64,000 nt of DNA from Botryllus schlosseri (taxonomy: Eukaryota). Each line of letters begins with the position of its first letter. Positions within the stretch are counted from its first letter, which is position 1. Below the pieces are notes generated by a model that worked only from the letters and a program-made list of their open reading frames with translations, was not told the DNA's origin and searched no databases. The stretch is from positions 11,036,001-11,100,000 of the forward strand of contig CM119385.1 of the NCBI GenBank assembly GCA_051294905.1. The letters run 5' to 3'. The position numbers and the translations under genes were made by a program. Positions 23,996 through 59,099 of the stretch are shown here, in pieces.

Positions 23996-24025
23996 TAGTT
24001 GATGCTCACTGTTATCTTCAAAACC

Positions 24026-24520: not shown

Positions 24521-24619
24521 AAGCTCGATCGCAGTTACTATTTGTTATATTTACATCATGGGTTCCGTGCGAATAAACGGTTGTAAGTTTATTGGATCCA
24601 AGGCCGTATCATGGATAGT

Positions 24620-24814
24620 GTGAAGTAGTTGTCTACCCAGAGCTTTTGCTCCTTTGGAAATCAAGGGTACCACACTACGTCCCAAACTGCGAAATAGATT
24701 ACCTAGACCGTGACCTCTTTGCACTCGACCTCGAAAGTAGTTTATGTCCCCTCCGCTTTGATTTCGATAATAGTGTTGAAAAGCTTCACGATCACAACAG
24801 TAATGTGCTCTCAT
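24620..24814 (-). pseudogene. 3'-truncated copy of the cement/pX-like gene running into the TIR
   Basis: Identical to the 36686 ORF up to LGRQLLHT, then reads antisense TIR sequence. Confidence 0.8.
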
Positions 24815-25541: not shown

Positions 25542-26159
25542 AACGCAATAGCACGCTTTCGAAATTGCAGTACAGCACTAGACGGTGCACTCCGAAAAGG
25601 AATTTTTTCACCCTTATCATTCAACAAAGATATTTTTATACGTTCCAATCTATTTATATTTATAGGGAAAAAGAAAGGCTTTATGTAGTATTTGGAAAAC
25701 GCCTTCTTATCTCCCTCGACTTTCACCACTCGCAATAGGCGCTGTAATGTACCATTGGATTCTTGCGGTTCAATAATATCGCAATGAACGTATACAAAGT
25801 CAATCGACGGTAAGGGTGTTATATCGAAATTGAAATGTATTTTTTTCTTTGAGAAAGAATATGCGGATAGCGCTGCTGTATTTGGTAACACGAAAGTCGC
25901 GAGAGTGTAGGCATCTGGAATTTCTATATTCTTCAACGTTGCTGTATAATCGTTCTCTGCAGTCACGATATTGCATTGCGTATCCACTCCTGGATAAAAG
26001 ATATCTGTGATGTCTTCGTGTGGAATTGACACAGTTAGGGTATTGCTCTCAGGAAAACATTTTACTGCTACATCGGGGTTGATACTTTCTATGGTTTTTA
26101 ACATGGCGTAGAGCGAGTCATATTGTCCAATTTTCAGGCGGAATCGTCTAAAGCTTTGT
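25538..26159 (-). pseudogene. 5'-truncated copy of penton-1
   Basis: Matches the 35158-35979 protein from QSFRRFRLK onward; lacks the first ~66 codons. The upstream 'N-terminus' in the ORF track is an alternative frame of ORF182. Confidence 0.8.
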
Positions 26160-26696
26160 CTGAGAATTGTTTGGCATCCATTTTTGATTGCCGTATTGCG
26201 TATTGCTATTTGGAAAGGTACCATTAGCATTGCCAGCATTCCGGAATCTTGCATTGGTATTCGACATGCCACCATTCCCAGCAAAGTTGCCATAACCATT
26301 TGGAAATCCCGCTTTTGCGCGATCCATAGGTTGTATTTGACCATTCGGCGCAATGTAACGCGATGTTTCTTGTAAAATCCACCCCAGCGGTGAATTTTCT
26401 ACGTCATCAACGACGTTCGACGGAGAATATAATATATATTCATCAGCGAGATTGATTTGCTGAAAGTATTCGATACCTTCTCGAGTGTAACACGCAACGA
26501 GCTTCCCATCATGAGTTAAACTTGCTTTGAATCTTTGTATTGCACCATTCGTTGGAAACACACGTACTTGTCGAGCATCGATCAGCTGATCGTCTGCAGT
26601 TTCGATTCGAAGCTTCGATATGTTATTGAAAATGTAAATGTCCTTCCGAAGAGCTCCTTCTGGGAGTTGCGACTCGGCTCTAATTGCTATAGACAT
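26148..26696 (-). CDS. Orphan Maverick protein (182 aa) with Gly/Asn-rich tail; C-terminus clipped by the duplication junction
   Basis: ATG-initiated ORF; its last codons ACA AAG CTT TAG lie inside the duplicated penton sequence. Confidence 0.65.
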   Translation of the reverse strand: MSIAIRAESQLPEGALRKDIYIFNNISKLRIETADDQLIDARQVRVFPTNGAIQRFKASLTHDGKLVACYTREGIEYFQQINLADEYILYSPSNVVDDVENSPLGWILQETSRYIAPNGQIQPMDRAKAGFPNGYGNFAGNGGMSNTNARFRNAGNANGTFPNSNTQYGNQKWMPNNSQTKL

Positions 26697-26806
26697 GATT
26701 CGATCTAAACAATGTCTCTTGAATAGAACTGAAATTATGGAGTAGCTACTGTGGTTTTTATAGACCTCGGCGTGTTCTTTTCTCTGATTTTTTTTTTTTT
26801 AAACTT

Positions 26807-27050
26807 AAATTTAAAATGATTGAATATCTCACACGTTGCGTCGCTGTTTTGCAACTGTCACAGATTCAAATTCAACGCAGCAGCTGTTATTTTTCAAATT
26901 TAAAATGATTATCTCGAACGTTGCGCAACTGTTTCACAACTGCCGCAGATTCAAATTCAACGCCGCAGCTGTTGTTTTTAAATTTAATATATCTCGGACG
27001 TTGCGCAACTGTCACTGGCACAGTTTCAAATTCATAGCCGCAGCTAGTTT
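26807..27050 (+). repeat. Three tandem ~85-bp units in the Maverick intergenic region
   Basis: Units start at 26807, 26896 and 26980 (AAATTTAA...ATCTC..ACGTTGCG...CAGATTCAAATTCAACGC.GCAGCTGTT). Confidence 0.85.
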
Positions 27051-27190
27051 GATAGGTGCATGCGTGTTATTGTGATCGCATACTAGGTGAGGGACCCACG
27101 TGAACACTTATTCATTGGAACTTAAACGCCTTAACCACTCAGCCAACTCAGTATATATTCACGATGTTTAGCCTCAGCTATGCGACCACT

Positions 27191-27398
27191 ATTTAGAGAT
27201 AGCAGTCATTTGCGTTTTTGATATTATAGAGTATTACGATCGAATCGCTACGAGTAACGCACTGTCTAACTCATTGGGGAATTGATTTTTCAACGCGATA
27301 TTTAGAGCTAGCAATGCTAAGTTCCACTAAGTCCGAACAGCTGCGTTTTGTTATTGTTGAGTATCGCGCAGTTGTCAATAGGGAATAGATTTTCAATG
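27191..27398 (+). repeat. Two degenerate ~109-bp tandem units
   Basis: ATTTAGAG.TAGCA...TGCGTTTT...GAGTAT...GGGAAT.GATTTT at 27191 and 27300. Confidence 0.6.
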
Positions 27399-27453
27399 GT
27401 TTAGATACGCTCAGTAGATACGCCGTTTAGACTTTAGTTATTGAGTATTGAGA

Positions 27454-27594
27454 ATGAATACTGAACAAGCCGTAAATGACGAGATGGAACAAGTCGCAGT
27501 AGATAACGAAAGTAGTACGACTCAAGTTGACGTGATTGACATCACCGGCGATGATTGCAGTAAAGCTAAATCAACCAGCGAAGATTTTGAATAA
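27454..27594 (+). CDS. 46-aa acidic micropeptide with a SUMO-interacting motif
   Basis: MNTEQAVNDEMEQVAVDNESSTTQVDVIDITGDDCSKAKSTSEDFE*; below the ORF-track cut-off. Confidence 0.55.
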   Translation: MNTEQAVNDEMEQVAVDNESSTTQVDVIDITGDDCSKAKSTSEDFE

Positions 27595-27622
27595 CAATCC
27601 TTAACTTTTTGTTATAATTCAA

Positions 27623-27860
27623 CGATTGCGTATTGCAGCATGTATAGTATTGATTACTTCATATGCATAGTTGATTACTTTAGTTATTACGAGAGCGTCA
27701 TTGCTTAGTTACAGTACCGCTGAGATATGATTGCGTCCAGTCCAATAACACCGAGAAATACGTTATTACGATTGTGTAGTTGAAGCATGTTCATGATTAC
27801 GTCATATGCGTAGTTGATTACTTTAGTAACGCTGAGATATGATTACTGCGTTGATTGCCT
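27623..27860 (+). promoter_or_regulatory. Internal copy of TIR promoter modules upstream of ORF217/pPolB
   Basis: Shares GATTGCGTATTGCAGCATGT, AGTAACGCTGAGATAT, AGTTGATTAC and CATGATTACGTCA blocks with 23840-23995. Confidence 0.65.
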
Positions 27861-27917
27861 TTGCAGTTGAAGCAAGTGCAAGGCAATATATAACGTGTAA
27901 TATTTAGTACATGACAT

Positions 27918-28571
27918 ATGTTTTTGAGTAGTGATATAGCAAGCTATGTATTGAGTACTTTTGAAAAGTTAAATGCCGACAAATCTATTTGCATGTTTCC
28001 GAATTGTGCTATTGTTTTCATTAATAATGCTGCTCTCCTAGAGACTATTATGACACGTACAGCTGTGAACTGTGATTATGGCTTGATTAAGCCTGCCTCT
28101 TTCTGGATGTTTTGTAAAAATGGCTCTGAGATCATTAATTCAATCTTTTATTGTTTGCAGCTCAGTATGGATAACTTTATTGACATAAGTGACTTGTTAG
28201 ATATGAACGCACCTCATCAAAGTGTAACGATGCAGGCTCCGAGAAAAGACATGAACAAGATATATCAGAGTCAAAATGAAAGCCGAAAGCGCTCGCGTCA
28301 AGACACTATGTCTTTGATCGAAGGTCTAGTTGACGACGATTTGAAGATGGAAGCTATGTGGAATCGACTTGTTTCGATGGAAGTATTTGACCAAGACTAC
28401 TCGAAAAATTTTCTAAACATAATTAAAAACACCATGAAAGACATTGAAAAACTATCTAGTGACTCGAATGCTTGCATTGTTGAGATTCAGCGTCTTGAAA
28501 AAATTAAGTTTGTGTTTCTATACGGTGTGATTAAATGTAAACTGCGCTTGAAATATGGATTCAATTTCTAA
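27918..28571 (+). CDS. Orphan Maverick protein, 217 aa
   Basis: ATG ORF overlapping the pPolB start; basic patch SRKRSR and helical C-terminal part; no family recognised. Confidence 0.7.
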   Translation: MFLSSDIASYVLSTFEKLNADKSICMFPNCAIVFINNAALLETIMTRTAVNCDYGLIKPASFWMFCKNGSEIINSIFYCLQLSMDNFIDISDLLDMNAPHQSVTMQAPRKDMNKIYQSQNESRKRSRQDTMSLIEGLVDDDLKMEAMWNRLVSMEVFDQDYSKNFLNIIKNTMKDIEKLSSDSNACIVEIQRLEKIKFVFLYGVIKCKLRLKYGFNF

Positions 28572-31500
28572 TATATGTACTGACTATTGTCTTGGTATTT
28601 TTCAGATACTAGTATCTATGGCGCGACGCAGGCGATATGGAGATCGTGGATTTCTGGTCGACGAAACGCTGGGTTTCGAACAAGACGGCATAGAGGTGAT
28701 TGAAAGACACTACGATTCCATCATCGATTCGACATGGACTTCAAGAAACAACTTACGAGAAATCATCAACATTCGAATGGTCGGAAGAGGTCCGCTCGAA
28801 ATTCACGCGCGTATTGCAGACATTTACCCCAGAAGATATCGTCAGTTCAAGATGAATTTCGCGTATGGGTACTTATTATTCAACCGTGACACATCCAGAT
28901 ATAGTTATTATCATCCTCAGAGTTCTCAAGCGGTTTTTACTGTCCCTAAAACTATCATATCACGCGAAGATTTCGATTCCGTCACGAATGAGATCGATTT
29001 GACGGCAGGTTTTGAATATGCCAATCGAGTGCGACCAGATACGAAATTCTACTGTGCTGATGTGTTGCATATTTCCATTTACATTTATGAGATGGATAGA
29101 GCTTTACTTGGTGGAAGTACTATCATTTCCCCGGAGATGCAAGCATTAAGCAAATGTAACTATATCATGACTTTCCTGCGTAACCAAAAAGGCAAAGCAT
29201 ATGAGGATTCTTTGTGTATTTTCCGCTGCGTTTCATATAGCATGAAAAAAAAGCGTAATGAAACACATGTTCGGCAATTGGCCGCGCAATTCACAGCCCG
29301 TTACGATATCTCGACTGAGAACGGAGTAGCTTTTGAAGACTTATCAAAAGTTGAGGATTGTTTTCAAGTTCAAATACTGCTTTATGAAAAACGTAATCAA
29401 GGCACAGTCATGCTGCGTAATTCTCATGCTAATGGAATGACTATACCTATTCACATGCAAGATCATCACTGTTGCCTGATTAGGGACCTGACATTGTACA
29501 CGTCTACCTATATGTGTGACAAGTGTAAATTTTTCTTTACTAGAAAAGATAATTTGATAGAGCATATGAAAAGCATTGATTGTGAGCGTCCTCAAAAACA
29601 GCGACACGGTTTCGGTATTTATCGCCCTAAGATGACTGTGTTTGAGCGAATGGCCGAACAAGGAATTTTGGTTAGCTCTGAAAAACGATATTACCCCTTC
29701 CGAATCGCTTATGATTTCGAGAGTTTACTAGAAAAAGAAAATCTTCGAGCTGACACACCGAAAGTTGAAATTGTCAACAAGCATGTTGCGGTATCGGTAT
29801 CTCTCTCAGATAATGTTACGAATGAAACGCATACACTCATTTCCAACGGTGATCCCAACGTTTTAATCAACGATATGGTGGCAAAACTATATGAAATTCA
29901 AAACGTCGCATCTTCGCATATGCGGCAGTTATTTGAAGAAGAATTGAAAGATTTTCGCATGTTAATAGAGCATCGCAATGCAATTGAACCAGGCAAAACT
30001 CGCTATTTAGATCGCTTGTATCGTCACTTCGAAATTTGGTTGGATCAAATACCTGTGATTGGATTCAACTCGGCTCGTTACGACTTGAATCTTTGTAAAA
30101 AATATTTGATTCCTATACTGCAAGAAGAAAGTGGATTTTTTGTTTTGAAACGAAACAGCGCATATCTGACCATCAGTACCAACCGATTGAAATTCCTTGA
30201 TATTTCACTGTTTCTGTCACCGGGTTATAGTTTGGACGCGTACTTGAAAATTTATGGAAATGGGGTGGACAAAAAATTCTATTTTCCATACGAGTACATG
30301 ACTTGTATTGATAAATTGAATGACACGCAATTACCTCCACACGAGATGTTCTATAGCAGTCATCGAGGCACTAATATCACCGCGGCGCAATACCAAGAAT
30401 GCGTAGATATGTGGAATCGTCTGCAAATGAAAACCATGCGAGACTTTCTAACTTTTTATAACGAAAGTGACGTGATTGGCTTTCTGGTTGCGTTAGGTAA
30501 TAACGCTGCCTTTTATCAAAAGTTGGGTATTGACATGTTCAAATCTGCTATCAGTTTACCAAGCATAGCCAATCGACTCATGTTTGCAGAATGTTATGAC
30601 ATCGCGCTGTTCAGTAAAGCGAATGCTGATCTCCATCAAACTGTAGTGAGCAATCTATTCGGTGGTCTGTCACAAATATCGACACGATTTGCAATGAAAG
30701 ACGAAACGAAAATTCGTGAAATACAGTACGGCGACGCAGCGAAATACGTGAAAAAGATAATCGGATATGACGCAAATTCGCTCTACCTCGCATCCATCGA
30801 TCAATGCATGCCGTGTGGATTTCCAATCAGGTGGTTGTATGACGAAACCAAACAAAAATTTCACAGAAAGCCAATTTACCCTGCGATGGCAGAACTCGAA
30901 TGGCTTACTTATGAAAGTTATCAGCGCGATATTTCAATTCAACACGCCTGGAACGGCAAGCAAGCTAAACTTGGCTCGCGTCAAATTTCGGTTGATGGCT
31001 TTTCGCTTGAATATCAATTGATATTCCAATATCATGGATGTTTTTTTCATTGTTGTGATCGGTGCTATAAGGACGACGCAAACATTGAGCGACGTATTAA
31101 AACAGAAGAAATCACTGCCTATCTCGAAGAGTTGGGATACACGATAATATCAATACGCGAATGTGAATGGAATCGCATGAAACTCAACCCTGACATTGCG
31201 CAGTTTGTTTCGTCACTACAAAGAAATGTAACAAAAGAATATTATCTCACTGCGAATCAACTATTAGATCGCGTATTTCATCAACAGTTCTTTGGGGCAT
31301 TGGAAGTCGATGCGTACTGCCCCGATGAATTAAAAGCAAAATATGCAGAATTTCCGCCATTTTGTAAACATATCTCGGTGGATTTATGCGATGTCGGCGA
31401 ACATATGCGCGAATATGCCCGTCAAAACAATGTGAAATTTCCAAAGAAGTTTTTGGGCTCTAGTTATTTCACTGAGAAACAACTAATTACAAGTGATTTG

Positions 31501-32484
31501 TTGGGTTGGTACATGGATCACGGTATGATTATTACACGCATATATCAAGCCGTGGAATACGAAGCCAAACGACCATTTCAAAAGTTTGTAAATTCTGTCG
31601 TAACGCAAAGGCGAAAGGGTGATGTAACCCCTAAAGACCCAGCACGTGAAATGGAGGCCTTGACCTTCAAATTATGTGGAAATTCCGCGTTTGGGTCCAC
31701 TATACAGAACCCAATGAAGTACAGAAACCATACCTATGTAAAAGGTGATGAGTTGAAATCACACATTCAGAAAAAAAACTTTATTGACGCCGATGAACTT
31801 TCTGAAGATCTGATCGAGGTTAGCTCGTTACCAGATTCAATTGACGTCGATCAACCGATCATTGTAGGTCTATTCATCTTTAACTCCAGTAAATTACGCA
31901 TGCTTTCGTTTCTGTATGACTTTTTACATGAGTATTTAGAGGAATGCGACTTCAGTTATTTGGAGGGAGATACTGATAGCCAATATCTGAGTTTATCAGC
32001 TGATTCAATCTACTCCCTAATTAAACCTTCGCGAAGGAAAGAATTTTTTCAAGTTCATGATGAATGGCTCATACAGAGAGCTTGCGCGCTGCATCGAGCA
32101 GACTTTGAGCGTGATCCGATCGCTTTCAAAACCACCGAACCGTGCTGTGTCGCTGCTTACAATTATGCTAAACGAATTCCTGGTCTGTTCAAAGTAGAAT
32201 GGGAGGGTCATGGGTTTATTGGATTGAACTCGAAAACGTATTACTGCAAGGGTGAGACTGATAAATATTCATCCAAAGGTTTGAGTAAATCCGCCTCTAA
32301 GACCTTCAAGGATTTTGAAGGCGTGTTGCAAAACCGTTCCACTTGCGGCGGGATTAATTCTGGGTTTCGCTGTTTTAATGGTAATATTTTTACTTATAAG
32401 CAATATCGTTCTGCTTTGTCGTATGGTTACTATAAAAGAGTTGTTTTGCCGGATGGCATACATACTGTACCGCTTTCATTGTAA
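28555..32484 (+). CDS. Protein-primed family B DNA polymerase (pPolB), 1309 aa
   Basis: Exo I AYDFES, Exo II GFNSARYD, Exo III YNESDV; motif A GYDANSLY, motif B KLCGNSAFG, motif C GDTDS; Zn finger CDKC..H and a Vsr-like insertion VDG...QYHGCFFHC. Confidence 0.97.
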   Translation: MDSISNICTDYCLGIFQILVSMARRRRYGDRGFLVDETLGFEQDGIEVIERHYDSIIDSTWTSRNNLREIINIRMVGRGPLEIHARIADIYPRRYRQFKMNFAYGYLLFNRDTSRYSYYHPQSSQAVFTVPKTIISREDFDSVTNEIDLTAGFEYANRVRPDTKFYCADVLHISIYIYEMDRALLGGSTIISPEMQALSKCNYIMTFLRNQKGKAYEDSLCIFRCVSYSMKKKRNETHVRQLAAQFTARYDISTENGVAFEDLSKVEDCFQVQILLYEKRNQGTVMLRNSHANGMTIPIHMQDHHCCLIRDLTLYTSTYMCDKCKFFFTRKDNLIEHMKSIDCERPQKQRHGFGIYRPKMTVFERMAEQGILVSSEKRYYPFRIAYDFESLLEKENLRADTPKVEIVNKHVAVSVSLSDNVTNETHTLISNGDPNVLINDMVAKLYEIQNVASSHMRQLFEEELKDFRMLIEHRNAIEPGKTRYLDRLYRHFEIWLDQIPVIGFNSARYDLNLCKKYLIPILQEESGFFVLKRNSAYLTISTNRLKFLDISLFLSPGYSLDAYLKIYGNGVDKKFYFPYEYMTCIDKLNDTQLPPHEMFYSSHRGTNITAAQYQECVDMWNRLQMKTMRDFLTFYNESDVIGFLVALGNNAAFYQKLGIDMFKSAISLPSIANRLMFAECYDIALFSKANADLHQTVVSNLFGGLSQISTRFAMKDETKIREIQYGDAAKYVKKIIGYDANSLYLASIDQCMPCGFPIRWLYDETKQKFHRKPIYPAMAELEWLTYESYQRDISIQHAWNGKQAKLGSRQISVDGFSLEYQLIFQYHGCFFHCCDRCYKDDANIERRIKTEEITAYLEELGYTIISIRECEWNRMKLNPDIAQFVSSLQRNVTKEYYLTANQLLDRVFHQQFFGALEVDAYCPDELKAKYAEFPPFCKHISVDLCDVGEHMREYARQNNVKFPKKFLGSSYFTEKQLITSDLLGWYMDHGMIITRIYQAVEYEAKRPFQKFVNSVVTQRRKGDVTPKDPAREMEALTFKLCGNSAFGSTIQNPMKYRNHTYVKGDELKSHIQKKNFIDADELSEDLIEVSSLPDSIDVDQPIIVGLFIFNSSKLRMLSFLYDFLHEYLEECDFSYLEGDTDSQYLSLSADSIYSLIKPSRRKEFFQVHDEWLIQRACALHRADFERDPIAFKTTEPCCVAAYNYAKRIPGLFKVEWEGHGFIGLNSKTYYCKGETDKYSSKGLSKSASKTFKDFEGVLQNRSTCGGINSGFRCFNGNIFTYKQYRSALSYGYYKRVVLPDGIHTVPLSL

Positions 32485-32488
32485 TAAA

Positions 32489-33109
32489 ATGAACCGTGCA
32501 CGTGTTTTATACTCGCCTCTTCGTATGATAATTAGTGGAGCATCGTCCAGTGGAAAAACAGTTTTCGCCTATAGAATCATACAAAATGCCGACAAGCTCA
32601 TCGTACCTCGACCGAGAAAGATCATCTGGTTATATAATAACTATCAACCGTTGTATGATAAGATGAAAGGAGTGTCATTTTACAAGGGTCTAGACAAGTT
32701 GAAAGATTTACAGAGAGCTAATAGTGAACATACGTTAATTGTGCTAGATGACATGATGACGCAAGCAAGTCAAGTGCGTGAACTGTTCACCAGATATAGT
32801 CATCACATGTCGCTCTCAGTGGTGTTTCTCTGTCAAAATCTATTTCACCGTGGAGCAGGCTTCCGTGACATTACGCTGTCTAGCAACTATATTGTCATCA
32901 TGAAAAATCCTCGTGATTCCGCCCAGATTCGATATCTTTCACGTCAAATGTTTCCAGATAAACCAAATTTTCTCACGGAAGCCTACAAGAGAGCAACTCG
33001 TAAGCCTTATAGTTATATCATGGTTGATTTGACGCAGGAAACACCCGAACAGTATCGACTTCGCAGCAACATTTTTCCAAGCGAACGTATGACCGTGTAT
33101 TTGGAATAA
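32489..33109 (+). CDS. A32/FtsK-like DNA packaging ATPase, 206 aa (start MNRARV)
   Basis: Walker A GASSSGKT, Walker B LIVLDD, FLCQNLF motif. Confidence 0.93.
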   Translation: MNRARVLYSPLRMIISGASSSGKTVFAYRIIQNADKLIVPRPRKIIWLYNNYQPLYDKMKGVSFYKGLDKLKDLQRANSEHTLIVLDDMMTQASQVRELFTRYSHHMSLSVVFLCQNLFHRGAGFRDITLSSNYIVIMKNPRDSAQIRYLSRQMFPDKPNFLTEAYKRATRKPYSYIMVDLTQETPEQYRLRSNIFPSERMTVYLE

Positions 33110-33144
33110 ATAGCGCTGTACTCGAACATCCACTATCATTCGCA

Positions 33145-33549
33145 ATGGCGAGGTCACGCGGTGTTTTGAAAAAAACTTTAAATAATCATCTTATCAAGTT
33201 GAAGCTGCTAAAGAGTGCTAAAAAGAAGGAACGTAACGAGTTATTAACTCACAAAGCTTTTACTAGCTGTGTGTGTGAGTGTCTTCGTAACCTTGTCTCG
33301 GGCAATATAGCTATTTCAAGTACGAGTAAGGCACGATTGAAGAAGCATAAAACTAACATTCGCAAAGTGTTGTGCTGTAAATCTCAAAAACAGAAGCAAA
33401 AAACATTACAACAGGGTGGCTTTTTATCAGGTGAATATACATGCGATTCGATTCGATTCATGATCTAACTTTAATGATTGATAGCGATCTTAAGTGCTGC
33501 AATTCCGATTATTGGAAGTCTGTTGGGCGGATTGACTAGACATGCGTGA
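33145..33549 (+). CDS. Basic core protein (pVII/PW-like), spliced: exons 33145-33430 and 33485-33549, 116 aa
   Basis: CECLRNLVSGN and QQGG|F adenain-type site; removing the GT-AG intron restores the amphipathic end QQGGFLSAILSAAIPIIGSLLGGLTRHA. Confidence 0.8.
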
Positions 33550-34003
33550 ATTGTACTTCCCGTCTTTACAATCAAAAGACGCCTACGAAAAGAAATTCAA
33601 TGAACATATCGCAAGCATCAGGGACTCTGATTTGACACGCACCGAAAAATTAGCACTATTTCAACACGGCATTAGACTATTGAGAAATCTACGTGCAAAT
33701 AAGAAATTGATCAAGTCGTCGTCCCGCGCACCCGCAGCGCCCGCTACCGATGAAACAATTGCCGCGTCGCATCCGCCCGGAGCGGCGCCCGCTATTAATA
33801 ACACATTTGACGCGACACCTCCGCCCGCAACACCCGAGATTTGGAACAATTACGAAGCGGTAACTCCACCCCATACACCTAAAACTTCAAAGAAAAAAGT
33901 TAAAAAGAAGAAAGCCAATAAACCTCCAGTTAATTGGCAAAGCATTGACGGTCCGCGCAAACGAAAGCCGAATCAACGCTACACAGGAAAGTTATGGACA
34001 TGA
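33542..34003 (+). CDS. Maverick virion/core-type protein, Pro/Ala-rich middle and Lys-rich tail, 153 aa
   Basis: ATG overlaps the spliced upstream stop; helical IRDSDLTRTEKLALFQ segment is like the conserved small ORF found before Maverick integrases. Confidence 0.7.
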   Translation: MRELYFPSLQSKDAYEKKFNEHIASIRDSDLTRTEKLALFQHGIRLLRNLRANKKLIKSSSRAPAAPATDETIAASHPPGAAPAINNTFDATPPPATPEIWNNYEAVTPPHTPKTSKKKVKKKKANKPPVNWQSIDGPRKRKPNQRYTGKLWT

Positions 34004-35001
34004 CGCAAGACTATTTCGATCCCCGCAAACCAAACTCCTATAGAGGAGCTTATTTACAGAAAGACAAAGAATGGTTGAAATCAGAACAAAGTTATACCCT
34101 GCATTTTCCTATACGAAAAAAATTTACTCGCGAGAAGGTGGTAGTCTCTGGAATTGATAGTCAGTTTCAGAGCGATTTGATTGATGTGCAGTCTATTTCT
34201 AAATACAATCGTGGATTTAGATATCTGGCTTTGGTTATTGATACGTTTTCAAAGTTTGTGTGGTTGATTCCAATTAAAGATAAAACTGGTCGCAGTATGA
34301 TTTCTGCTTTCCGACAAGTGTTCAATGAGAGGCTGCCTTTAGTGTTGCAGACTGATAGAGGTACAGAATATACCAATCGAGCTTTTCAAAACTTTCTCAA
34401 GAAAAATAAAGTTCGTTACTTTTACACAAAAAGCGAATTGAAGTCGTCTCTCGCCGAGCGCTGTATTAGGACTTTCAAGGCAATCTTGTACCGCTATTTC
34501 ACAAAGAATAACACCAGTAAATACATCGACGTGCTACAGGATTTCGTATATTCCTATAATCACACCAAACATACGTCGTTAGGTATGGCTCCTAGTCAAG
34601 TCAATTCACACAATCAAGAAGCTATTTGGCAAAAAATGTACGGGTTTCGACAAGCTACACTTCCCACACTGACGAAAGGGACAGCCGTACGCATTTCGAA
34701 AATTCGCGGGCTTTTTGAAAAGAGCAGTAGACCCAATTGGACAACTGAGATATTTTATATCATCGACGCAATGGCTGGTGACCCTCCGATGTATCACCTG
34801 CGTGACTATAATCATGATGTCATCGATGGGAGGTTTTACAGAGAAGAACTACAGGTAGTGACCGAACCTACAGAGTGGCGTGTTGAAAAGATTATAAAGA
34901 GACGTCAACGCGGCAAACACCGTCAGTATTTAGTGAAATGGGTAGGATATGGATCAGAATTCAATTCCTGGGTCGATCAAAAAGATATCGTCAAACCGTA
35001 A
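33994..35001 (+). CDS. Retroviral-type (rve) DDE integrase with C-terminal chromodomain, 335 aa
   Basis: QSDLID, QTDRGTEY and AERCIRT catalytic motifs; chromodomain WRVEKII...YLVKWVGY...NSWV. Confidence 0.95.
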   Translation: MDMTQDYFDPRKPNSYRGAYLQKDKEWLKSEQSYTLHFPIRKKFTREKVVVSGIDSQFQSDLIDVQSISKYNRGFRYLALVIDTFSKFVWLIPIKDKTGRSMISAFRQVFNERLPLVLQTDRGTEYTNRAFQNFLKKNKVRYFYTKSELKSSLAERCIRTFKAILYRYFTKNNTSKYIDVLQDFVYSYNHTKHTSLGMAPSQVNSHNQEAIWQKMYGFRQATLPTLTKGTAVRISKIRGLFEKSSRPNWTTEIFYIIDAMAGDPPMYHLRDYNHDVIDGRFYREELQVVTEPTEWRVEKIIKRRQRGKHRQYLVKWVGYGSEFNSWVDQKDIVKP

Positions 35002-35161
35002 CTTTTATCAATTCATCGCTCAAGTCGTGGTTATATTGATCATAGTGATTTTTTCACTCTACAATTTAACAATCGTTCAAGAAAACAAGGAGCTTTGGGT
35101 ATCGTTATTATCGTCGTGTGTGGGTTATATGTTACCAGCTCCAAAAATACCTAAACTATGA
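34949..35161 (+). CDS. Small two-TM membrane protein
   Basis: FIAQVVVILIIVIFSLYNL and LWVSLLSSCVGYMLPAP; TATGA overlap with the penton-1 start; typical Maverick small hydrophobic ORF. Confidence 0.7.
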   Translation: MDQNSIPGSIKKISSNRNFYQFIAQVVVILIIVIFSLYNLTIVQENKELWVSLLSSCVGYMLPAPKIPKL

Positions 35162-35979
35162 GTTATGTGACGTTATTTTCCAATGCTTCTATGGACATGT
35201 TTCCTGGCAATACAACCGCAGAATATGTCAACGAAATGCAGACGGCTAGAAATGTAGAGAGAAATGAAGTCGCTCTGACGGAGATCAGTTTTCCAAGAGA
35301 TTTTGAAAAACGTATCGAGTCACAAGCTTCTTTCGGATTCCAAATTACGGGTATCGAACAAAGCTTTAGACGATTCCGGTTGAAAACAGGACAATATGAC
35401 TCGCTCTACGCCATGTTAAAAACCTTGGAAAGTATCAACCCTGATGTAGCAGTAAAATGTTTTCCTGAGAGCAATACCCTAACTGTGTCAATTCCACACG
35501 AAGACATCGCAGATATTTTATATCCAGGAGTGGATACGCAATGCAATATCGTGACTGCAGAGAACGATTATACAGCAACGTTGAAGAATATAGAAATTCC
35601 AGATGCCTATACTCTCGCGACTTTTGTGCTACCAAATACAGCAGCGCTATCCGCATATTCTTTCTCAAAGAAAAAAATACATTTCAATTTCGATATAACA
35701 CCCTTACCGTCGATTGACTTTGTATACGTTCATTGCGATATTATTGAACCGCAAGAATCCAATGGTACATTACAGCGCCTATTGCGAGTGGTGAAAGTCG
35801 AGGGAGATAAGAAGGCGTTTTCCAAATACTACATAAAGCCTTTCTTTTTCCCTGTAAATATAAATAGATTGGAGCGTATAAAAATATCTTTGTTGAATGA
35901 TAAGGCTGAAAAAATTCCTTTTCGGAGTGCACCGTCTAGTGCTGTATTGCAATTTCGAAAGCGTGCTATTGCGTTATGA
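35158..35979 (+). CDS. Minor capsid protein (penton) 1, 273 aa
   Basis: N-terminal YVTLFSNASMDMFPGNT and C-terminal VYVHCDIIEPQ...LLRVV...IKISLLNDK...VLQFRK match the Maverick penton pattern. Confidence 0.9.
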   Translation: MSYVTLFSNASMDMFPGNTTAEYVNEMQTARNVERNEVALTEISFPRDFEKRIESQASFGFQITGIEQSFRRFRLKTGQYDSLYAMLKTLESINPDVAVKCFPESNTLTVSIPHEDIADILYPGVDTQCNIVTAENDYTATLKNIEIPDAYTLATFVLPNTAALSAYSFSKKKIHFNFDITPLPSIDFVYVHCDIIEPQESNGTLQRLLRVVKVEGDKKAFSKYYIKPFFFPVNINRLERIKISLLNDKAEKIPFRSAPSSAVLQFRKRAIAL

Positions 35980-36708
35980 AATACATTCACATTAGCAGTT
36001 CGGAATCGGATTTTGTACTTGACTTGGCACGTCCCATCACCGGAAAATGGGAGTTGGGGCTTGCAGAATTTTCAGTTCGTAATCAGTTTCAAGCAACTTT
36101 ACCTCATTTCAATGGATTGTTATGGGAATTTCAAGAGGAAAAATCATCTGCTCTGTTGGCAGCGCAAAGCAATAATTATTTTTTCTATCCAAATGGGGAT
36201 TATTATGATTTCAAAAGCTTGATCGATAGAATCAATCGTAGTCAGACAAAGGTATGGATAAATCAGTTGTCAAGCTCCACGGCTATGCTAGTCATACCCC
36301 CTAGCGAAGCAGGTGCCTTTCCGAATTTCCGAAGAAATCCAAAGAGAATCAGAAACCCGGTTTTCGTATATGGGAATCTTAAACAACAACATTTACCGCA
36401 AGGAAAATATTTAACTTCGCAAATGTTCCTGCGAGATGGCATCGAGCCTATTAGTAATTTATTGGTCTATACCGATCTCATTCGACCGCAAACAGTCGGC
36501 GATACGAATGCACCGCTATTGCGAAATATCCCTATCACAGCAACATCACATTTTTGAGAAAATCTACTTTTTCCCTATGATTGCGGAATATGCCAATCGA
36601 ATTCGAATTAGTATTAGAGACGATAAAGGAGAATCTATAAATCTGAATGGTTCTGTAGTTCATATCACACTTGCTTTACGTCACGATGAGAGCACATTAC
36701 TGTTGTGA
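35976..36708 (+). pseudogene. Penton-like protein 2, frameshifted by a 17-bp deletion at 36542/36543
   Basis: ORF stops at 36557; the C-terminus continues in another frame to 36708. The inverted copy keeps GCTAACAATGAATACCA (24958-24974). Confidence 0.88.
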
Positions 36709-37054
36709 TCGTGAAGCTTTTCAACACTATTATCGAAATCAAAGCGGAGGGGACATAAACTACTTTCGAGGTCGAGTGCAAAGAGGTCACGGTCTAGGTA
36801 ATCTATTTCGCAGTTTGGGACGTAGTGTGGTACCCTTGATTTCCAAAGGAGCAAAAGCTCTGGGTAGACAACTACTTCACACCGGGGCTGAAGTCGCTTC
36901 TGACGTATTGGGAGGACAAAACATTGGAGAAAGCTTTAAAATCAGAGGAAAGCAAGCTGCTAGTCAAGCACTTGATAATTTCCTAGGGAAGAGAAAAGCA
37001 CCTAAAAAGAAAAATACCAAACGGAAAAAACGTCGCCGGGATATTTTTGATTAA
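36686..37054 (+). CDS. Cement/pX-pVI-like virion protein (start MRAHYCC)
   Basis: QSGG and QRGHGLG Gly motifs, amphipathic GLGNLFRSLGRSVVPLISKG helix, basic tail; lies just before hexon. Confidence 0.8.
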   Translation: MRAHYCCDREAFQHYYRNQSGGDINYFRGRVQRGHGLGNLFRSLGRSVVPLISKGAKALGRQLLHTGAEVASDVLGGQNIGESFKIRGKQAASQALDNFLGKRKAPKKKNTKRKKRRRDIFD

Positions 37055-37104
37055 ATACAAATAGCAAGCCTTCCTCTTTTCATTTACAAGTAGACCCGCG
37101 GAAC

Positions 37105-38382
37105 ATGACGGAGCTGATTCATAGCAAATCTGCTGAAGGTATTCATCCGTCTTTAGACCTTTTCCAGATACCACCTACTCAGACGAGTGTAGAGAAAAAA
37201 CGTATCATCAAGATACCCCCTGTTTCGGACAATGAATCCGTCATAACTTTCAGATACGAGGGGTGTGGAGATTTCATAGATCTAAGCGAATCTTATTTTT
37301 TATTTCGTTTGAAACTGTTGAAAGGCGATGCGGATTTAGTCGCAAATGATGATATTGGCGTTGTCAATAACATTTTAGATTCAATGATTTCACAACTTCA
37401 CATTAAAGTTGGAAATCACACGATCAAGCAGGATATAAAACTACAGGCGTATTCAGCCTACTTGAACTATCTGTTCGCCCCACAAGACGTACAAAAGTCA
37501 ACGCTTTTGACACAGGGTTGGGTCAAAGATACCCCTGAGCAATTAGATGATAAGGCTATAGGCGATGCTGCAGCTAACAAAGGTCACAACGCGAGAAGTT
37601 TGCCTTTTGCAATCAGTAAAGTTGTTGAAATTAGAGGCCGAATACATCACGGATTATGCTTACAAGACCGTTACATTCTGGACGAGGTACCCTTGGAGTT
37701 CGAACTCACTTTGAACCCGAAAAGTTTCTTTCTGTTTGGAGTGAATACTAGCAATTTCAAAATTATTAAAAAAGAGCTGCAATTGTGTGGTGTGAAAGTA
37801 AGCGAAGATGTGAAATCCGCTATGATGGTCGATGCTCCAGCTAGATATCCGTTTATGGACATGAAGCTTCTGACAAGAACTTTCGCAGCTAACACCACTC
37901 AAATCGATATTGGTAATCTGTATTCGGGTACTCTACCGACTCGTTTAATCATCGGTATGGTAGCGACTAAGGCATTCCAGGGTGCGTTCGATAAAAATCC
38001 ATACAATTTTATTCATAACAAAATGAAGCGTGTCGAATTGAAAGTCAATGGTTTCCTGATACCGGAAGGTGGATACGAACTTGATTTTGAAAACAATCAC
38101 TATTCTGAAGCCTATCTCAATATGGTTCAAGGCATAGGAGCTCTCGAAAAACAGATCGGAGTTCTCACCCCGAAGGAATTCGCTAATGGATATACTCTTC
38201 TAGTATATAACTTGCGAGCTGATGATTTAGACGACTGTTTCGAACTGCAGAAAAGCGGTACCCTTAGTCTGCGCATCACTTTTCCTGCTGATGGTGTCGC
38301 GAGCGAAACAACTCTGCTTTGTTTCATGGAATTTCAAAAAATACTGGAAATAAGCCAAGCTCGCACCGTTACTGTAATATGA
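37105..38382 (+). CDS. Major capsid protein (hexon, double jelly-roll), 425 aa
   Basis: SLDLFQIPPTQTSVE N-terminus, GTLPTRLIIGMV...AFQG..KNPYNF, and C-terminal GTLSLRITF...MEFQKILEI match the Maverick MCP pattern. Confidence 0.95.
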   Translation: MTELIHSKSAEGIHPSLDLFQIPPTQTSVEKKRIIKIPPVSDNESVITFRYEGCGDFIDLSESYFLFRLKLLKGDADLVANDDIGVVNNILDSMISQLHIKVGNHTIKQDIKLQAYSAYLNYLFAPQDVQKSTLLTQGWVKDTPEQLDDKAIGDAAANKGHNARSLPFAISKVVEIRGRIHHGLCLQDRYILDEVPLEFELTLNPKSFFLFGVNTSNFKIIKKELQLCGVKVSEDVKSAMMVDAPARYPFMDMKLLTRTFAANTTQIDIGNLYSGTLPTRLIIGMVATKAFQGAFDKNPYNFIHNKMKRVELKVNGFLIPEGGYELDFENNHYSEAYLNMVQGIGALEKQIGVLTPKEFANGYTLLVYNLRADDLDDCFELQKSGTLSLRITFPADGVASETTLLCFMEFQKILEISQARTVTVI

Positions 38383-38831
38383 ACGGACTAGAAATAGATG
38401 AAATATTGTATAGTTACGATTCCACCAAACGACATTATCTAGGAAATTTTCCTATTGATCGACTTCCTCGGCGACCGAAAGCTCCCTACTCATTAATCAT
38501 TAATTATGACGAGGCCGACGAACCAGGAAGTCACTGGGTATGCATCTACGCTGATGAATATGGAACTCATTATCATGACAGCTTCGGCATAACTCCGTTC
38601 AGAAACGAAATACCCTGTTTCTTAGAACCTGAAAAGTATACAAGTTCGATCAAACCATTACAGCACAAACGTTCAGAGGCTTGCGGAGCGCACGCAATTT
38701 CATTCCTAAGCTGCCGCAGTGATGGTATGAGCACGCTGTCTTATTTAGACCACTTCGGAAAAGATAAGAAACACAACGATAGTATAGTCTGGGACTTTGT
38801 TCAAAGATTGAAACGAAATGCGAGCAAATAG
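38379..38831 (+). CDS. Adenain-like cysteine maturation protease (start MNGLEI), 150 aa
   Basis: Catalytic H (GSHW), D (YHDSFG), Q (LQH) and C (SEACG); ATATGA overlap with the hexon stop. Confidence 0.93.
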   Translation: MNGLEIDEILYSYDSTKRHYLGNFPIDRLPRRPKAPYSLIINYDEADEPGSHWVCIYADEYGTHYHDSFGITPFRNEIPCFLEPEKYTSSIKPLQHKRSEACGAHAISFLSCRSDGMSTLSYLDHFGKDKKHNDSIVWDFVQRLKRNASK

Positions 38832-39135
38832 CTTCACTGTCATACAGTACTTTGGAGATGAGAAGATTCGACTGAAAATCAGAGAAAAAATCATTGTAAT
38901 GAATCCTGAACGCATTCACAGACTTTCATCTGATAGCTTTCATATACGTATTTATCCGCATGACCGAGATATTACATTATTCATTGGAACTGATTGGTTG
39001 CCTGTACGCTTTCCTAATCATTGTATGTACATAGACGTGTTATCGAAACATAGAATTGCTCAACAAATCAGTGAAGAATTTGTTGTTTTTCGTAGACTAA
39101 AAATCTGGGAATCTCTGACTAGATCGCGTATATAA
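38818..39135 (+). CDS. Orphan accessory protein, 105 aa
   Basis: ATG overlaps the protease end; beta-rich; no family recognised. Confidence 0.6.
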   Translation: MRANSFTVIQYFGDEKIRLKIREKIIVMNPERIHRLSSDSFHIRIYPHDRDITLFIGTDWLPVRFPNHCMYIDVLSKHRIAQQISEEFVVFRRLKIWESLTRSRI

Positions 39136-39252
39136 ATGGAAGATGCCGATGATATCTTAGCTGTCGTGTTCATCGTACTGCTTACTATTTGTTGTATACT
39201 GGAATGGGTATCATGTTGCTGTCAAGAACGTGAGCAAGCTAGTGAAGCATGA
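39136..39252 (+). CDS. 38-aa single-TM, Cys-rich micropeptide
   Basis: MEDADDILAVVFIVLLTICCILEWVSCCCQEREQASEA*; abuts the upstream stop (TAA-ATG) and overlaps the next start (ATGA). Confidence 0.6.
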   Translation: MEDADDILAVVFIVLLTICCILEWVSCCCQEREQASEA

Positions 39253-39566
39253 CCATGGCAAGAATTTCTGTTGCTACTCAGTTTGAGTCGAGTCGTAATT
39301 ATGAGGAAATGATTGTATTGCCCAACGTGAGATCAATTACCATTCCCTACACGTGTATACTTTTCCATTATGATAATAGAATTGTAGTGAAACCAATTGA
39401 AGATTGTGTTACATACCCATCGCGTAATATCATTGTCTGTAAAGACGAATATTATCGTGTGCTTTATAAATCGTGCTTGGTCATTGATTTCAAGGGCAAG
39501 GCGATTGTTGTTGGTAATATAATCCTATTCCAAGCGTTTTGTGATGGTCGTTTCATAACTCAATAA
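39249..39566 (+). CDS. Orphan accessory protein, 105 aa
   Basis: ATGA-coupled; stop lies within AATAAA, the likely end of the rightward transcription unit. Confidence 0.6.
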   Translation: MTMARISVATQFESSRNYEEMIVLPNVRSITIPYTCILFHYDNRIVVKPIEDCVTYPSRNIIVCKDEYYRVLYKSCLVIDFKGKAIVVGNIILFQAFCDGRFITQ

Positions 39567-39617
39567 ATCACTGACTCGTGTTCGGTTGTGTTTATCCATT
39601 AGGTAGTAGCAAAATGC

Positions 39618-39689
39618 AGATTCGTCCGGGATTTGAACCCGGGACCTCTCGCTCCCAAAGCGAGCATCATACCCCTAGACCAACGAATC
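39618..39689 (-). tRNA. tRNA-Pro(UGG), Maverick-encoded
   Basis: 72 nt: GATTCGT/ACGAATC acceptor stem, CTCGC-TTTGGGA-GCGAG anticodon arm, CCGGG-TTCAAAT-CCCGG T arm; A and B boxes intact; TTTT terminator 3 nt downstream. Confidence 0.93.
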
Positions 39690-39865
39690 AGCGCACAATG
39701 CAAGCTGCATCAGACCAGTGCAACTTCGTCAATAAATCACTAACTCGCGCTATTTTTCATATAACCAACACATTATGGAGTTTTTATTACAAAGATTGCG
39801 ATCCACAATCAATATTTACAAGGCATAAACAAGTCACAAGCAAATGATAGTTTTAATCATTGTAA

Positions 39866-40336
39866 TCACGCTGACAAATCGCAGTCGACTCTGGCATAGC
39901 GTTCGGTATATTGCTGAGCGCGTTTAAAGTAGAGTTGTCTATCTTCCAGATAGAGATGTGCACTTTCCGCATTCATAGGATCGTTTGGATTTGGTGCGCC
40001 AAGTAACGAAGATATTGATAGCAGCACAGTTGATGTAGTTAGCGCTGGTGACCATTGCTTCTGCAAAATATCCACGCATATAGTGCCTTTCACACTAATG
40101 TTCGGGTGAAATATATGAGTTTCAAATCTCATCTTCGGAGGTCGAAACGGATACTCTGTGGGATATTCTATTAATATTTTAAACACTCCTTTTTCGTATG
40201 GTGTTCCCTGGGGTCCTTCAATTGTTGCCCACCAACTAAATAGATTCGATTCGTCAATCGGTCCCGCTTTGATAGTAGAATCAGAACAATTCCGAAACTT
40301 TTCTCGCTCGAAACACAGTCTTTTCAAAGCACACAT
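39866..40336 (-). CDS. Ubiquitin-conjugating enzyme E2 (UBE2D/Ubc4-like), 156 aa from MCALKRL
   Basis: EGPQGTPYEKGVF, EYPFRPPK, HPNI...ICVDIL (catalytic Cys), WSPAL; intronless; ATTAAA/AATAAA downstream. Confidence 0.95.
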   Translation of the reverse strand: MCALKRLCFEREKFRNCSDSTIKAGPIDESNLFSWWATIEGPQGTPYEKGVFKILIEYPTEYPFRPPKMRFETHIFHPNISVKGTICVDILQKQWSPALTTSTVLLSISSLLGAPNPNDPMNAESAHLYLEDRQLYFKRAQQYTERYARVDCDLSA

Positions 40337-40405
40337 TCTGAGTGACAATCAAATTGAAATGATTGCGCCACCTTTGCGTCATTAGCACTTCAACGGAAAA
40401 AAGAG

Positions 40406-40477
40406 TGGAGAATACGGGAATTGAACCCGTGACCTTCTGCTTGCAAGACAGCTGCTCTACCGCTGAGCTAAATCCCC
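40406..40477 (-). tRNA. tRNA-Ala(UGC), Maverick-encoded
   Basis: 72 nt GGGGATTTAGCTCAGCGGTAGAGC...CTTGCAA...GGGTTCAATTCCCGTATTCTCCA; G3:U70 pair; A and B boxes; T6 terminator at 40397-40402. Confidence 0.88.
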
Positions 40478-40500
40478 AAGCGATAGTGACGGCTTAAATG

Positions 40501-40800
40501 TTAGTTTTGAGCAGTAGCATTAGCAAATTTATGAGATAGTTCTACTGTAGCTGTTGACTTGAAAACAACTCGATGTTCTTCTTTCGTTACTTCAGTATCG
40601 TATATCTTCATAGTTTTTCTTTCGTCTTGATCACATGGTACCAGCTCTGTATAATTACATCCTTCACATTCTACTATAGTGAAAGGATACGATATTTCCA
40701 TTACATCCACACCAACCATCTTCATACATTTCGAATATACTATCCATGATACGGCCTTGGATCCAATAAACTTACAACCGTTTATTCGCACGGAACCCAT
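40501..40800 (-). CDS. Orphan accessory protein, 99 aa (start MGSVRING), straddling the right TIR boundary
   Basis: TATAAAA ~40 bp upstream; the first 21 codons lie in the TIR, and the left copy stops at the junction (24559-24623). Confidence 0.65.
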   Translation of the reverse strand: MGSVRINGCKFIGSKAVSWIVYSKCMKMVGVDVMEISYPFTIVECEGCNYTELVPCDQDERKTMKIYDTEVTKEEHRVVFKSTATVELSHKFANATAQN

Positions 40801-41672
40801 GATGTAAATATAACAAATAGTAACTGCGATCGAGCTTTTATAAGTGATACCACGTGACAAAATGCCTCCATCCACCATTTTGTTCTATCCACTTTCGTTT
40901 TTTAGTAGCAATGTAATTCCCGAGTGTCTGTATGATAGCATCTATATCCCTGCCGTTATGCGCAGCCTCGTTATTGCGAGCAAGAATGCCGCCAAGCACA
41001 TAAAGAGACACAATCCGACCCCAATTTTCTTGACTATCTTTGAATATTTCATCGGCTATCATCAGGAACATTCGCTCAATGGGTGAATGTTCTTTATATT
41101 TCTCATTGACTTCACTATAACGAAGGCGCTTGGAGACTGCGTTTAGGATAGTTCGATATCGCTCAAATATTTCAGTAACAACTCGTCGTAAGGTTTTCTC
41201 CACCTGTGTATTTGCTTTAACGCTTGAGCCGTCGATTTCATACATGATAAAATTTCTAGCTAAGGAATATGCCGTGGATATAATTTCATCCTTTTCTTCA
41301 GTGAGCGCAGGTGATACTCGCAATAATTCCATGGTTTTGAAGATAACAGTGAGCATCAACTACGCTTGTGACGTAATCATGAATATGGTGCAATACGCAA
41401 TCATAGGTAATCAACTTACGCAATGACGTATAATGACGTAATCATTATACACATGCTGCAATACGCAATTATAGGTAATCAACTTACGCAATGACGTAAT
41501 AAATATCTCAGCGTTACTGGACTGGAACTATGCCATCTCTCACACAACCAAAACCTCTCTCGTATTGGAACCACACCCACTTCGTTCTGCATTCTGATTG
41601 GCTAACAGATGTCACGTGATCAAATACTCGACGCTGATTGGGGCGCGCCTCGTTACCGTGTATAATACTACT
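40739..41672 (-). repeat. Right terminal inverted repeat (934 bp)
   Basis: Reverse complement of 23686-24619; ends ...AATACTACT followed by the TSD GCCTTA. Confidence 0.95.
40838..41332 (-). CDS. Bcl-2 family protein, right TIR copy
   Basis: Translation identical to the left copy (NWGR, GGW). Confidence 0.9.
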   Translation of the reverse strand: MELLRVSPALTEEKDEIISTAYSLARNFIMYEIDGSSVKANTQVEKTLRRVVTEIFERYRTILNAVSKRLRYSEVNEKYKEHSPIERMFLMIADEIFKDSQENWGRIVSLYVLGGILARNNEAAHNGRDIDAIIQTLGNYIATKKRKWIEQNGGWRHFVTWYHL

Positions 41673-43070
41673 GCCTTATAATATGGGGAAGAGTGCCAGG
41701 CCATGATATTCTATAAAACCGGGTGTTCGAGTGAACACAGGTTTAGTATCGCATTTTCATATCAATACTGTCATTTACATCCCATGATGTGGACGACTGC
41801 TTATTCTGTCAAAAATTGACATCTCCTGGGATGCATCAATATGAATCAAGCTCTCTACACCTTCCGCATAGTGCCATTTGCTGCTTTTGACAGTCCATGC
41901 GAACGAATTACGATCGTTTCCACGACTACTTACTTACTTGAGTAGATTTAAAGTCATTAAATTCTACTTCTACTTCAAGTAGTTTTAGGTTGCTTATGGA
42001 AGAAGTATTTCTACTCGTACTTGAGAATATTTTTTCGTCGCTACTTCTACTTCTACTTGAGTAGCTTTCTTGACTACTTTGACCACCTCTGGGAGGGTGT
42101 CAGTCGAAAAGACCGCAACTGCGCGTCGTTCGGCATCCTCCTATCTGTTCATTTCATCGCATTGTGTCTTATCGCATTGTTCAGAGCTCAAAGATTATTG
42201 ATATATGATTATTGATAAAACCATATAGTGTCCTGTATTGCGTGGACACAAGCAAATCTCACGGCTCAGTGAAATCGGACTACGTCACACTTTTCATTTG
42301 ACTAAAGGCAATTTGACGGTATTTTTGAGATATAATGCTCAATCGGTTGCGCAATGCGCAACAATGGCCAATACACTTGCGGTTTGCTCCGCTACTCAAC
42401 TGATCCCAGACGGCATCGATGTCAGGTATTTTTGTGGTGTATTGAACTGATAAAAATTGCTAATATATCGAACCGAAAATAATTTCAATGCAGGAGTCAA
42501 GTAGAAGCAATATAGGCCTATATCATTGGTAGAAGAGCACACGAATCATAATGTTTCGCCCGGAACCGGTACTCAGTATCAGTTTATAAATATTTTCACC
42601 AGTTCAAAACACCGCAGAAACTGCGATACAATGAAATGATAGGAAGGTGCCGAAACGACTTGGAGTAGTCTTTGACAGACACCCACCTTATTGGCCTAGG
42701 CGAAGTAGAAAAGAGGCATGCACTGCACACTGAATGAAAAGTAAAGAAGAAAGTCGAGTCCATATCCAATCCTGTAATCACACCACACTAACTTATCGTC
42801 CTGCACATTGATTTTGTACATCGCCATTGCCTAATTATTTTGGCCTAATGACCAACTTTTGAGGGTGACGACTTCTGCGTAAGATGCGCCTGGACTGGAT
42901 TGCTCGGCTTTGACCTTTGGTGACTATGTTAAATAGAGTTTTCCGTCCCGTGACCCGTATATACCGTGCTTATCTGTATTTTACATTTCACCGAATTGTA
43001 TTTTTGTTATGTATGTTATTGATTTCCCCGATTGACAAATAAGGATTATCTCTTCCTCTCTCTCTACATC

Positions 43071-59050: not shown

Positions 59051-59099
59051 TAATGTAAAAATGAAGCCAATGAAGCAAGGAAGTAAGTCCAGATTAGTA

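Follow-up and report, generated by a model that had tools for sequence, protein, structure and literature searches.

A Maverick/Polinton element of Botryllus schlosseri was found to carry a tRNA-Pro(UGG) gene of its own that is maintained by purifying selection. The gene was identified in a 64,000-nucleotide stretch of DNA, referred to here as the window. It lies inside the element and has intact promoter boxes, a terminator-like T run, an unbroken cloverleaf and an unchanged anticodon. The reading that we favour from the sequence, with somewhat more confidence than doubt, is that the viral gene is a real, selected and optional supplementary tRNA that works as an ordinary tRNA. The gene thus likely serves as a true tRNA in the replication of the element.

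The element and its gene content

The element has terminal inverted repeats (TIRs) with (AGT)2 ends, a 6-bp target site duplication (TSD), a retroviral-type integrase, a packaging ATPase and a major capsid protein, the features by which Mavericks are recognized (PMC8097293). These are shared with other animal Mavericks (PMC8097293, PMC8502044), and the likely protein-primed DNA polymerase B (pPolB) and protease of the element would be a further resemblance. The features of the element are as follows.

23680..23685, no strand: 6-bp TSD, left copy
23686..41672, + strand: Maverick/Polinton element, 17,987 bp, with AGTAGT...ACTACT termini
23686..24619, + strand: left TIR, 934 bp, 100% complementary to the right TIR
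28555..32484, + strand: likely protein-primed DNA polymerase B, 1309 aa, by size and position (no Pfam polymerase match at E<=0.05)
32315..33109, + strand: A32-like packaging ATPase (Pfam PF04665, Pox_A32, E 1.6e-9)
33994..35001, + strand: retroviral-type integrase with chromodomain (Pfam PF00665, rve, and PF00385)
37105..38382, + strand: major capsid protein (30% identity, E 4.5e-41, to UniRef 'Major capsid protein')
38319..38831, + strand: likely maturation cysteine protease, by position (no Pfam match)
39611..39614, - strand: T4 run, 3 bases past the Pro discriminator, likely a Pol III terminator
39618..39689, - strand: tRNA-Pro(UGG) (ARAGORN and Rfam, 61.1 bits), with A2-U71, U3-A70, G26, A38 and U73
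39866..40348, - strand: E2 ubiquitin-conjugating enzyme (Pfam PF00179, E 2e-48), between the Pro and Ala tRNA genes
40397..40402, - strand: T6 run after the tRNA-Ala gene, likely a Pol III terminator
40406..40477, - strand: tRNA-Ala(UGC) (ARAGORN and Rfam), with G3-U70, A73 and C32/A38
40739..41672, - strand: right TIR, a perfect match to the left
40838..41359, - strand: Bcl-2-family gene within the TIR (Pfam PF00452, E 1e-20); second copy at 23999-24520, + strand
41673..41678, no strand: 6-bp TSD, right copy

The open reading frame at 28555..32484 has polymerase-like motifs, by which we take it to encode pPolB, and the His/Cys motifs of the frame at 38319..38831 presumably mark a maturation cysteine protease. 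The left arm at 24618-26159 is an inverted duplication (97-99%) of the right-arm genes at 35358-36882, and the inverted repeat thus reaches inward past the TIR. A 13-nt direct repeat that contains AATAAA is present on both sides of the tRNA-Pro gene (39560-39572 and 39729-39741).

The family to which the element belongs is young; one other copy shows no difference over 3,072 bp (100% identity), whereas the identity of the remainder is 96-97.5%. A capsid search, in which 99 of 273 candidates were scored, divided the related loci into identity groups of 97-100%, 83-87%, 65-76% and 33-34%. The capsid protein search returned only 7 protein relatives, and no related capsid locus was found in viral or metagenome contigs, collections that are poor in animal genomes and so tell little about how widely the element occurs. 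Other Maverick families (L046, L067) carry distinct accessory genes, including open reading frames that, as we read them, resemble caspase and IAP/BIR.

The tRNA-Pro gene compared with those of the host

The reference for the comparison was the host's own set of 8 tRNA-Pro(UGG) genes, which lie at separate loci (L013-L020) and are mutually identical. The original prediction, made against the conserved animal sequence, had counted 7 differences, and the same count was obtained here: G2A, C3U, U26G, U38A, G70A, C71U and C73U. The remaining 65 of 72 positions are the same, including the anticodon and all promoter and invariant bases. Four of the changes recast two acceptor pairs, G2-C71 to A-U and C3-G70 to U-A, so that both pairs are doubly changed and still paired, just as had been proposed. 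The other three had been assigned to the D arm, the 3' side of the anticodon loop and the discriminator. The latter two assignments (U38A and C73U) are correct; the first is not, since position 26 is the hinge base that joins the D stem to the anticodon stem and lies outside the D-stem pairs.

All 21 stem pairs remain intact, and the 18 positions that are invariant or belong to the anticodon are unaltered. The A and B boxes (positions 8-19 and 52-62) are the same as in the host genes, several of which also end in a short trailer and a T run of similar kind. The G1-C72 pair is retained, but position 73 is U rather than C. Five changes fall at the acceptor end, every one a G/C-to-A/T transition in the same direction as the bias of the element, and A38 creates a U32-A38 pair, which is reported to be absent from human four-codon-box tRNAs (PMC7293025). 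The variant cloverleaf is weaker than that of the host by about 5 kcal/mol (-22.9 vs -28.1 kcal/mol). Without modification, the RNA is predicted to have a fold other than the cloverleaf as its energy minimum. Reading of all four Pro codons by superwobble was considered and rejected; it needs C32 and an unmodified U34 (PMC10853795) and the gene has U32.

When 7 random substitutions were placed on the host gene in 400,000 trials, at least two compensated pairs without any broken pair arose at a frequency of 1.1e-4 to 1.4e-3, according to the transition bias. The compensated pairs reflect purifying selection that keeps the fold, rather than adaptation; they imply that the fold is needed, and the new bases are not thereby adaptive. 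Human ProRS uses the anticodon and backbone and leaves the bases of the acceptor stem unread (PMC2377447; PMC9976931), so pairs 2-3 are free to drift provided they stay paired. The stem changes are probably compensated drift, which would most likely have passed through G-U intermediates at positions that ProRS ignores. More telling, at a suggestive level, are A38, which is present in all the viral Pro and Ala genes, and the loss of C73. In eukaryotic tRNA-Pro, C73 is the norm (PMC9976931), and it is an editing element rather than a ProRS element.

Distribution, conservation and loss of the viral genes

An exact search of the 495-Mb genome for the variant 5' stem gave 12 matches, of which the window family accounts for 11 and a family-B copy on C9 for the other. 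A 22-letter pattern spanning the D arm and anticodon gave 13 matches at 0 mismatches (all within Mavericks), none at one mismatch and 22 of the host type at two. The thirteenth Pro gene is located on C11, in a Maverick lineage with 71% capsid identity. There are thus 13 Maverick-borne Pro(UGG) genes beside at least 19 host-type pattern matches. The original prediction had proposed a check of the host's tRNA-Pro set for the same stem; no host gene in the exact-match scan has it, and all 12 of the exact matches are in Mavericks, so the viral gene can in principle be told from the host genes by sequence, as had been anticipated. Because no host gene has the variant and every copy (13/13) lies inside a Maverick, a SINE, whose dispersed copies would have a body, a tail and TSDs of their own outside other elements, was rejected as the source; in addition, the gene stops at the T run. 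A locus at C1:8.80 Mb with G26 and U38 is a degenerate host-type fragment, and Maverick genes are absent nearby. The G26/A38 Pro pattern had 0 matches in viral, prokaryote-genome and metagenome collections, which hold few animal genomes.

The family-B copy on C9 (5684400-5684540; L010:1460-1600) has a Pro gene identical at 71/72 positions within a cassette of ~140 bp next to the left TIR, with an unrelated upstream flank. An open reading frame near this cassette is, in our judgement, death-domain-like. A distant Maverick on C11 (4.699 Mb; L067:4316-4640) has its Ala and Pro genes arranged head-to-head. With U3-G70, G4-U69 and A73, the acceptor of this Pro gene is alanine-like; beyond the gene come a second tRNA-like unit, which is degenerate, and then a T5 run. 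Of the window-type copies, three are altered in the T stem (C to T), and in one the D loop is longer by a 1-nt insertion. The anticodon is identical across all 13 intact-length Pro copies.

The neighbouring tRNA-Ala gene differs from one host Ala(UGC) gene at 21/72 positions. Its pattern has 26 matches (11 in the window family, 1 in the C1 subfamily, 13 in family B and 1 on C11), as against at least 13 pattern matches for host-type Ala(UGC). The G3-U70 pair, A73 and the UGC anticodon are retained in all four viral Ala types compared, and all four have A38, whereas the host Ala genes seen have U38. A group of 86%-identical Ala matches (L033-L045) was considered as host genes or a SINE and rejected, since the matches sit in a second Maverick family.

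When 10 other copies of the family were aligned pairwise to the window copy, the Pro gene had 2 variant events in 72 positions against 41 in 227 for the flank (nominal p≈0.0008) and the Ala gene 1 in 72 against 12 in 80 (p = 0.003), p values that are approximate, given the relatedness of the copies and a possible excess of flank counts from mismatches next to indels. The variation is ~six-fold below that of the flanks over the whole Pro gene, acceptor stem and anticodon arm included. Furthermore, the genes persist between lineages. Identity at fourfold-degenerate sites of four core genes between the window copy and the C1, C9 and C11 copies was 0.86, 0.40 and 0.31, respectively. Despite silent sites at or near saturation in the C9 and C11 comparisons, the tRNA genes were identical at 71/72 positions for C9 Pro, 60/72 for C11 Pro and 61/72 for C11 Ala. 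The C9 match may be due to a recent transfer instead of long conservation.

The C11 Pro gene differs from the host gene by 12 changes that leave every pair intact; the chance of sparing all pairs and all invariant bases is P <= 2e-4. Its U3-G70 pair is the halfway state expected between C-G and U-A. In a five-row alignment, the rows of which are few and related, three pairs are doubly changed and the acceptor, anticodon and T-stem cells are all paired. A relative on C10 is decayed, with deletions, an insertion and an altered anticodon loop, and illustrates the state of copies that are not under selection. It belongs to a gene-less element of ~1.5 kb at C10:24.18 Mb (L189:170-1680) that has C11-type ends and decayed tRNA-derived pieces. 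The possibility that the G-U pairs of the C11 gene arose by decay after insertion was rejected; the first 11 and last 13 bases are common to the C10 relative, and the C11 acceptor ends are thus inherited. U3, G26 and A38 are common to the window and C11 Pro lineages. On sequence grounds, they suit a single ancient capture better than two recent ones, although repeated exchange is an alternative, since the capsid tree does not fix the order of the tRNA-bearing lineages. The simulation, the contrast with the flanks and the persistence across lineages together support the earlier proposal that the gene evolved under structural selection in the viral lineage and is not a fresh host copy or SINE.

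The gene has also been lost. In the C1 subfamily, which is 93% identical, it is cut to its last 9 bases by a deletion that joins a 6-nt microhomology beside the second copy of the 13-nt repeat; the E2 gene is missing as well. Only 1 of 14 copies of family B, the sister family, has the Pro gene, as the cassette at the opposite end, and a 97%-identical sister of the C11 element is without both tRNAs. A look at the other stretches sampled from the 70% and 34% capsid groups turned up no credible tRNA. The Pro gene is dispensable, and these losses speak against a vital role.

These losses could also be read as those of a passenger, either a defunct hitchhiker or a TFIIIC-binding insulator, in which the paired changes would have been produced by template switching between stem strands during single-stranded replication. 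The identity of the A and B boxes with those of the host and the five acceptor-end changes that follow the G/C-to-A/T bias of the element would suit such a reading. However, a six-fold reduction in variation that extends to the acceptor stem and anticodon arm argues against it, as does the C10 relative, which shows what real loss of function looks like. We consider a passenger very improbable.

Possible functions of the viral tRNAs

The unchanged anticodon of the Pro genes, with the G3-U70 and A73 of the viral Ala genes, points to aminoacylation and translation. A promoter or purely structural RNA is disfavoured, since neither needs the kept G3-U70, A73 and UGC. In the scheme that we prefer, that of an ordinary supplementary tRNA, an animal tRNA-Pro would have been captured long ago, before the split of lineages whose capsids are about 71% identical. 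Host Pol III would transcribe the gene, the RNA would be processed by RNase P/Z and the CCA-adding enzyme, and host ProRS would charge it for use on ribosomes. The Pro and Ala(UGC) tRNAs may then top up the two host isoacceptors of fewest gene copies during translation of the AT-rich genes of the element. By hand count, UGG (19 of 94 Pro) and UGC (13 of 75 Ala) are the host's rarest standard isoacceptors among the pattern matches, these counts being lower bounds.

Codon use was evaluated against a sample of host sequence made up of 29 kinase and 4 HSP70 stretches (9,857 codons, with one duplicate locus dropped). The GC3 of the element is 0.38 vs about 0.52 in the sample. There was no enrichment of CCA in the element, 45 of 173 Pro codons (26%) compared with 87 of 370 in the host (24%, p = 0.52). 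GCA was raised, at 76/251 (30%) vs 107/575 (19%, p = 3e-4), and GTA and, more weakly, ACA were raised about as GCA was, without a viral tRNA for either. Codon matching fails to explain the choice of Pro, because CCA is flat and ACA and GTA are up without viral tRNAs. Codon compensation for CCA is thus not supported by the codon counts.

The possibility was considered that the viral RNA is a translational tRNA selected for A38, G26 and a non-C73 discriminator in order to survive a host antiviral response that cleaves or depletes tRNAs. G26 and A38 are common to both viral Pro lineages and missing from host Pro(UGG), A38 also distinguishes the four viral Ala types compared from the host Ala genes seen, codon use leaves the choice of Pro unexplained, and the elements also bear Bcl-2 and E2 genes. 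There is a precedent in phage T5, which encodes a tRNA-Lys that is resistant to PARIS and, like the gene described here, has an anticodon stem-loop that differs from that of the host isoacceptor (PMC11464382). The comparison is an analogy only, drawn from sequence differences. By that analogy, animal Mavericks would have an equivalent of the anti-defence tRNAs of phages: Pro and Ala tRNAs with A38 loops and a discriminator remodelled to escape a tRNA-targeting antiviral or proofreading step of the host, and exchanged as a cassette from one Maverick lineage to another. We rate this speculation as unlikely while giving it some weight. Against selection for survival of a tRNA-directed response, A38 and G26 are common tRNA bases that may be due to drift or derive from an earlier host, and the frequent loss of the gene fits weak selection; such a role is possible but doubtful.

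The product might instead be a non-translational Pol III RNA whose cloverleaf is kept for processing or stability and which serves as a decoy or gives rise to tRNA fragments. Adenovirus VA RNA and the tRNA-like RNAs of gammaherpesviruses are models for this type of RNA. It would account for a kept fold without codon enrichment, and the C11 Pro gene is followed by a degenerate tRNA-like unit before the T5 run. However, a non-translational product leaves the identical anticodon of the 13 intact-length copies and the kept G3-U70 of the compared viral Ala genes without a reason, and the window gene meets its T run after 3 bases, so that there is no trailer hairpin. We regard this explanation as rather unlikely.

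Loss of C73 might also alter fidelity, by weakening ProXp-ala editing so that alanine is inserted at some proline codons; on C11, G4-U69 and A73 would make an acceptor that eukaryotic AlaRS can mischarge. Human ProXp-ala is 13-fold slower on C73A tRNA-Pro (bioRxiv 2020.09.11.293571), though the gene here has U73, not A73. The host has a single match to a tRNA_edit-family (ProXp-ala-like) gene (L183), mischarging through G4:U69 has been described for tRNA-Thr (PMC7337962), and the C11 acceptor ends, being exactly those of the decayed C10 relative, are features of the lineage. On the other hand, the benefit to the element is not evident, the window gene has U4-A69 rather than G4-U69, and the U32-A38 pair is reported to raise, not lower, fidelity (PMC7293025). 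An altered fidelity is, in our estimation, very improbable.

Reads were mapped to the element over 26700-39600 (12.9 kb, with the tRNA genes outside), where four runs gave 85, 116, 42 and 0 reads, most of them within 27.5-32.7 kb and few on the capsid gene. Such sparse transcription hints that some copy of the element is weakly active, and it has no bearing on the tRNA.

Known viral tRNAs and wider implications

Viral tRNAs are known from phages and giant viruses (PMC13191261, PMC11464382). Among the polinton-like viruses and virophages of protists, a collection gave 558 tRNA matches, for which codon compensation or the countering of tRNA depletion has been proposed (PMC12220804). As in those viruses, the tRNA genes described here lie inside a Polinton-type element of 15-25 kb and were probably captured from a host. 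Unlike them, they occur in an animal host and in an integrase-bearing Maverick, the tRNAs are Pro(UGG) and Ala(UGC), and selection was measured over copies and lineages. The main text of the survey of vertebrate Mavericks nowhere contains the word 'tRNA' (PMC8097293). The adintovirus paper mentions tRNAs only in a figure legend; the figure deals with viruses that have other replicases, perhaps a Trichoplax virus among them (PMC8502044). No report of a tRNA in animal Mavericks was found in a search of the openly available literature.

Maverick virions have not been observed, according to the vertebrate survey (PMC8097293). That a tRNA gene is under purifying selection argues independently for a stage of the element at which translation capacity matters. 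The viral genes are also a natural test of which positions can change in the near-invariant animal tRNA-Pro, namely acceptor pairs 2-3 and positions 26, 38 and 73. Annotation of tRNAs in the genome would count the Pro and Ala genes of the Mavericks as the host's, and the genes, if transcribed, could shift the tRNA pool of the host.

Elsewhere in the window, an AT-rich tandem repeat of 9-11 nt at 58616-62186 forms inverted arrays that are separated by ~2-3 kb and could be the arms of a foldback element.
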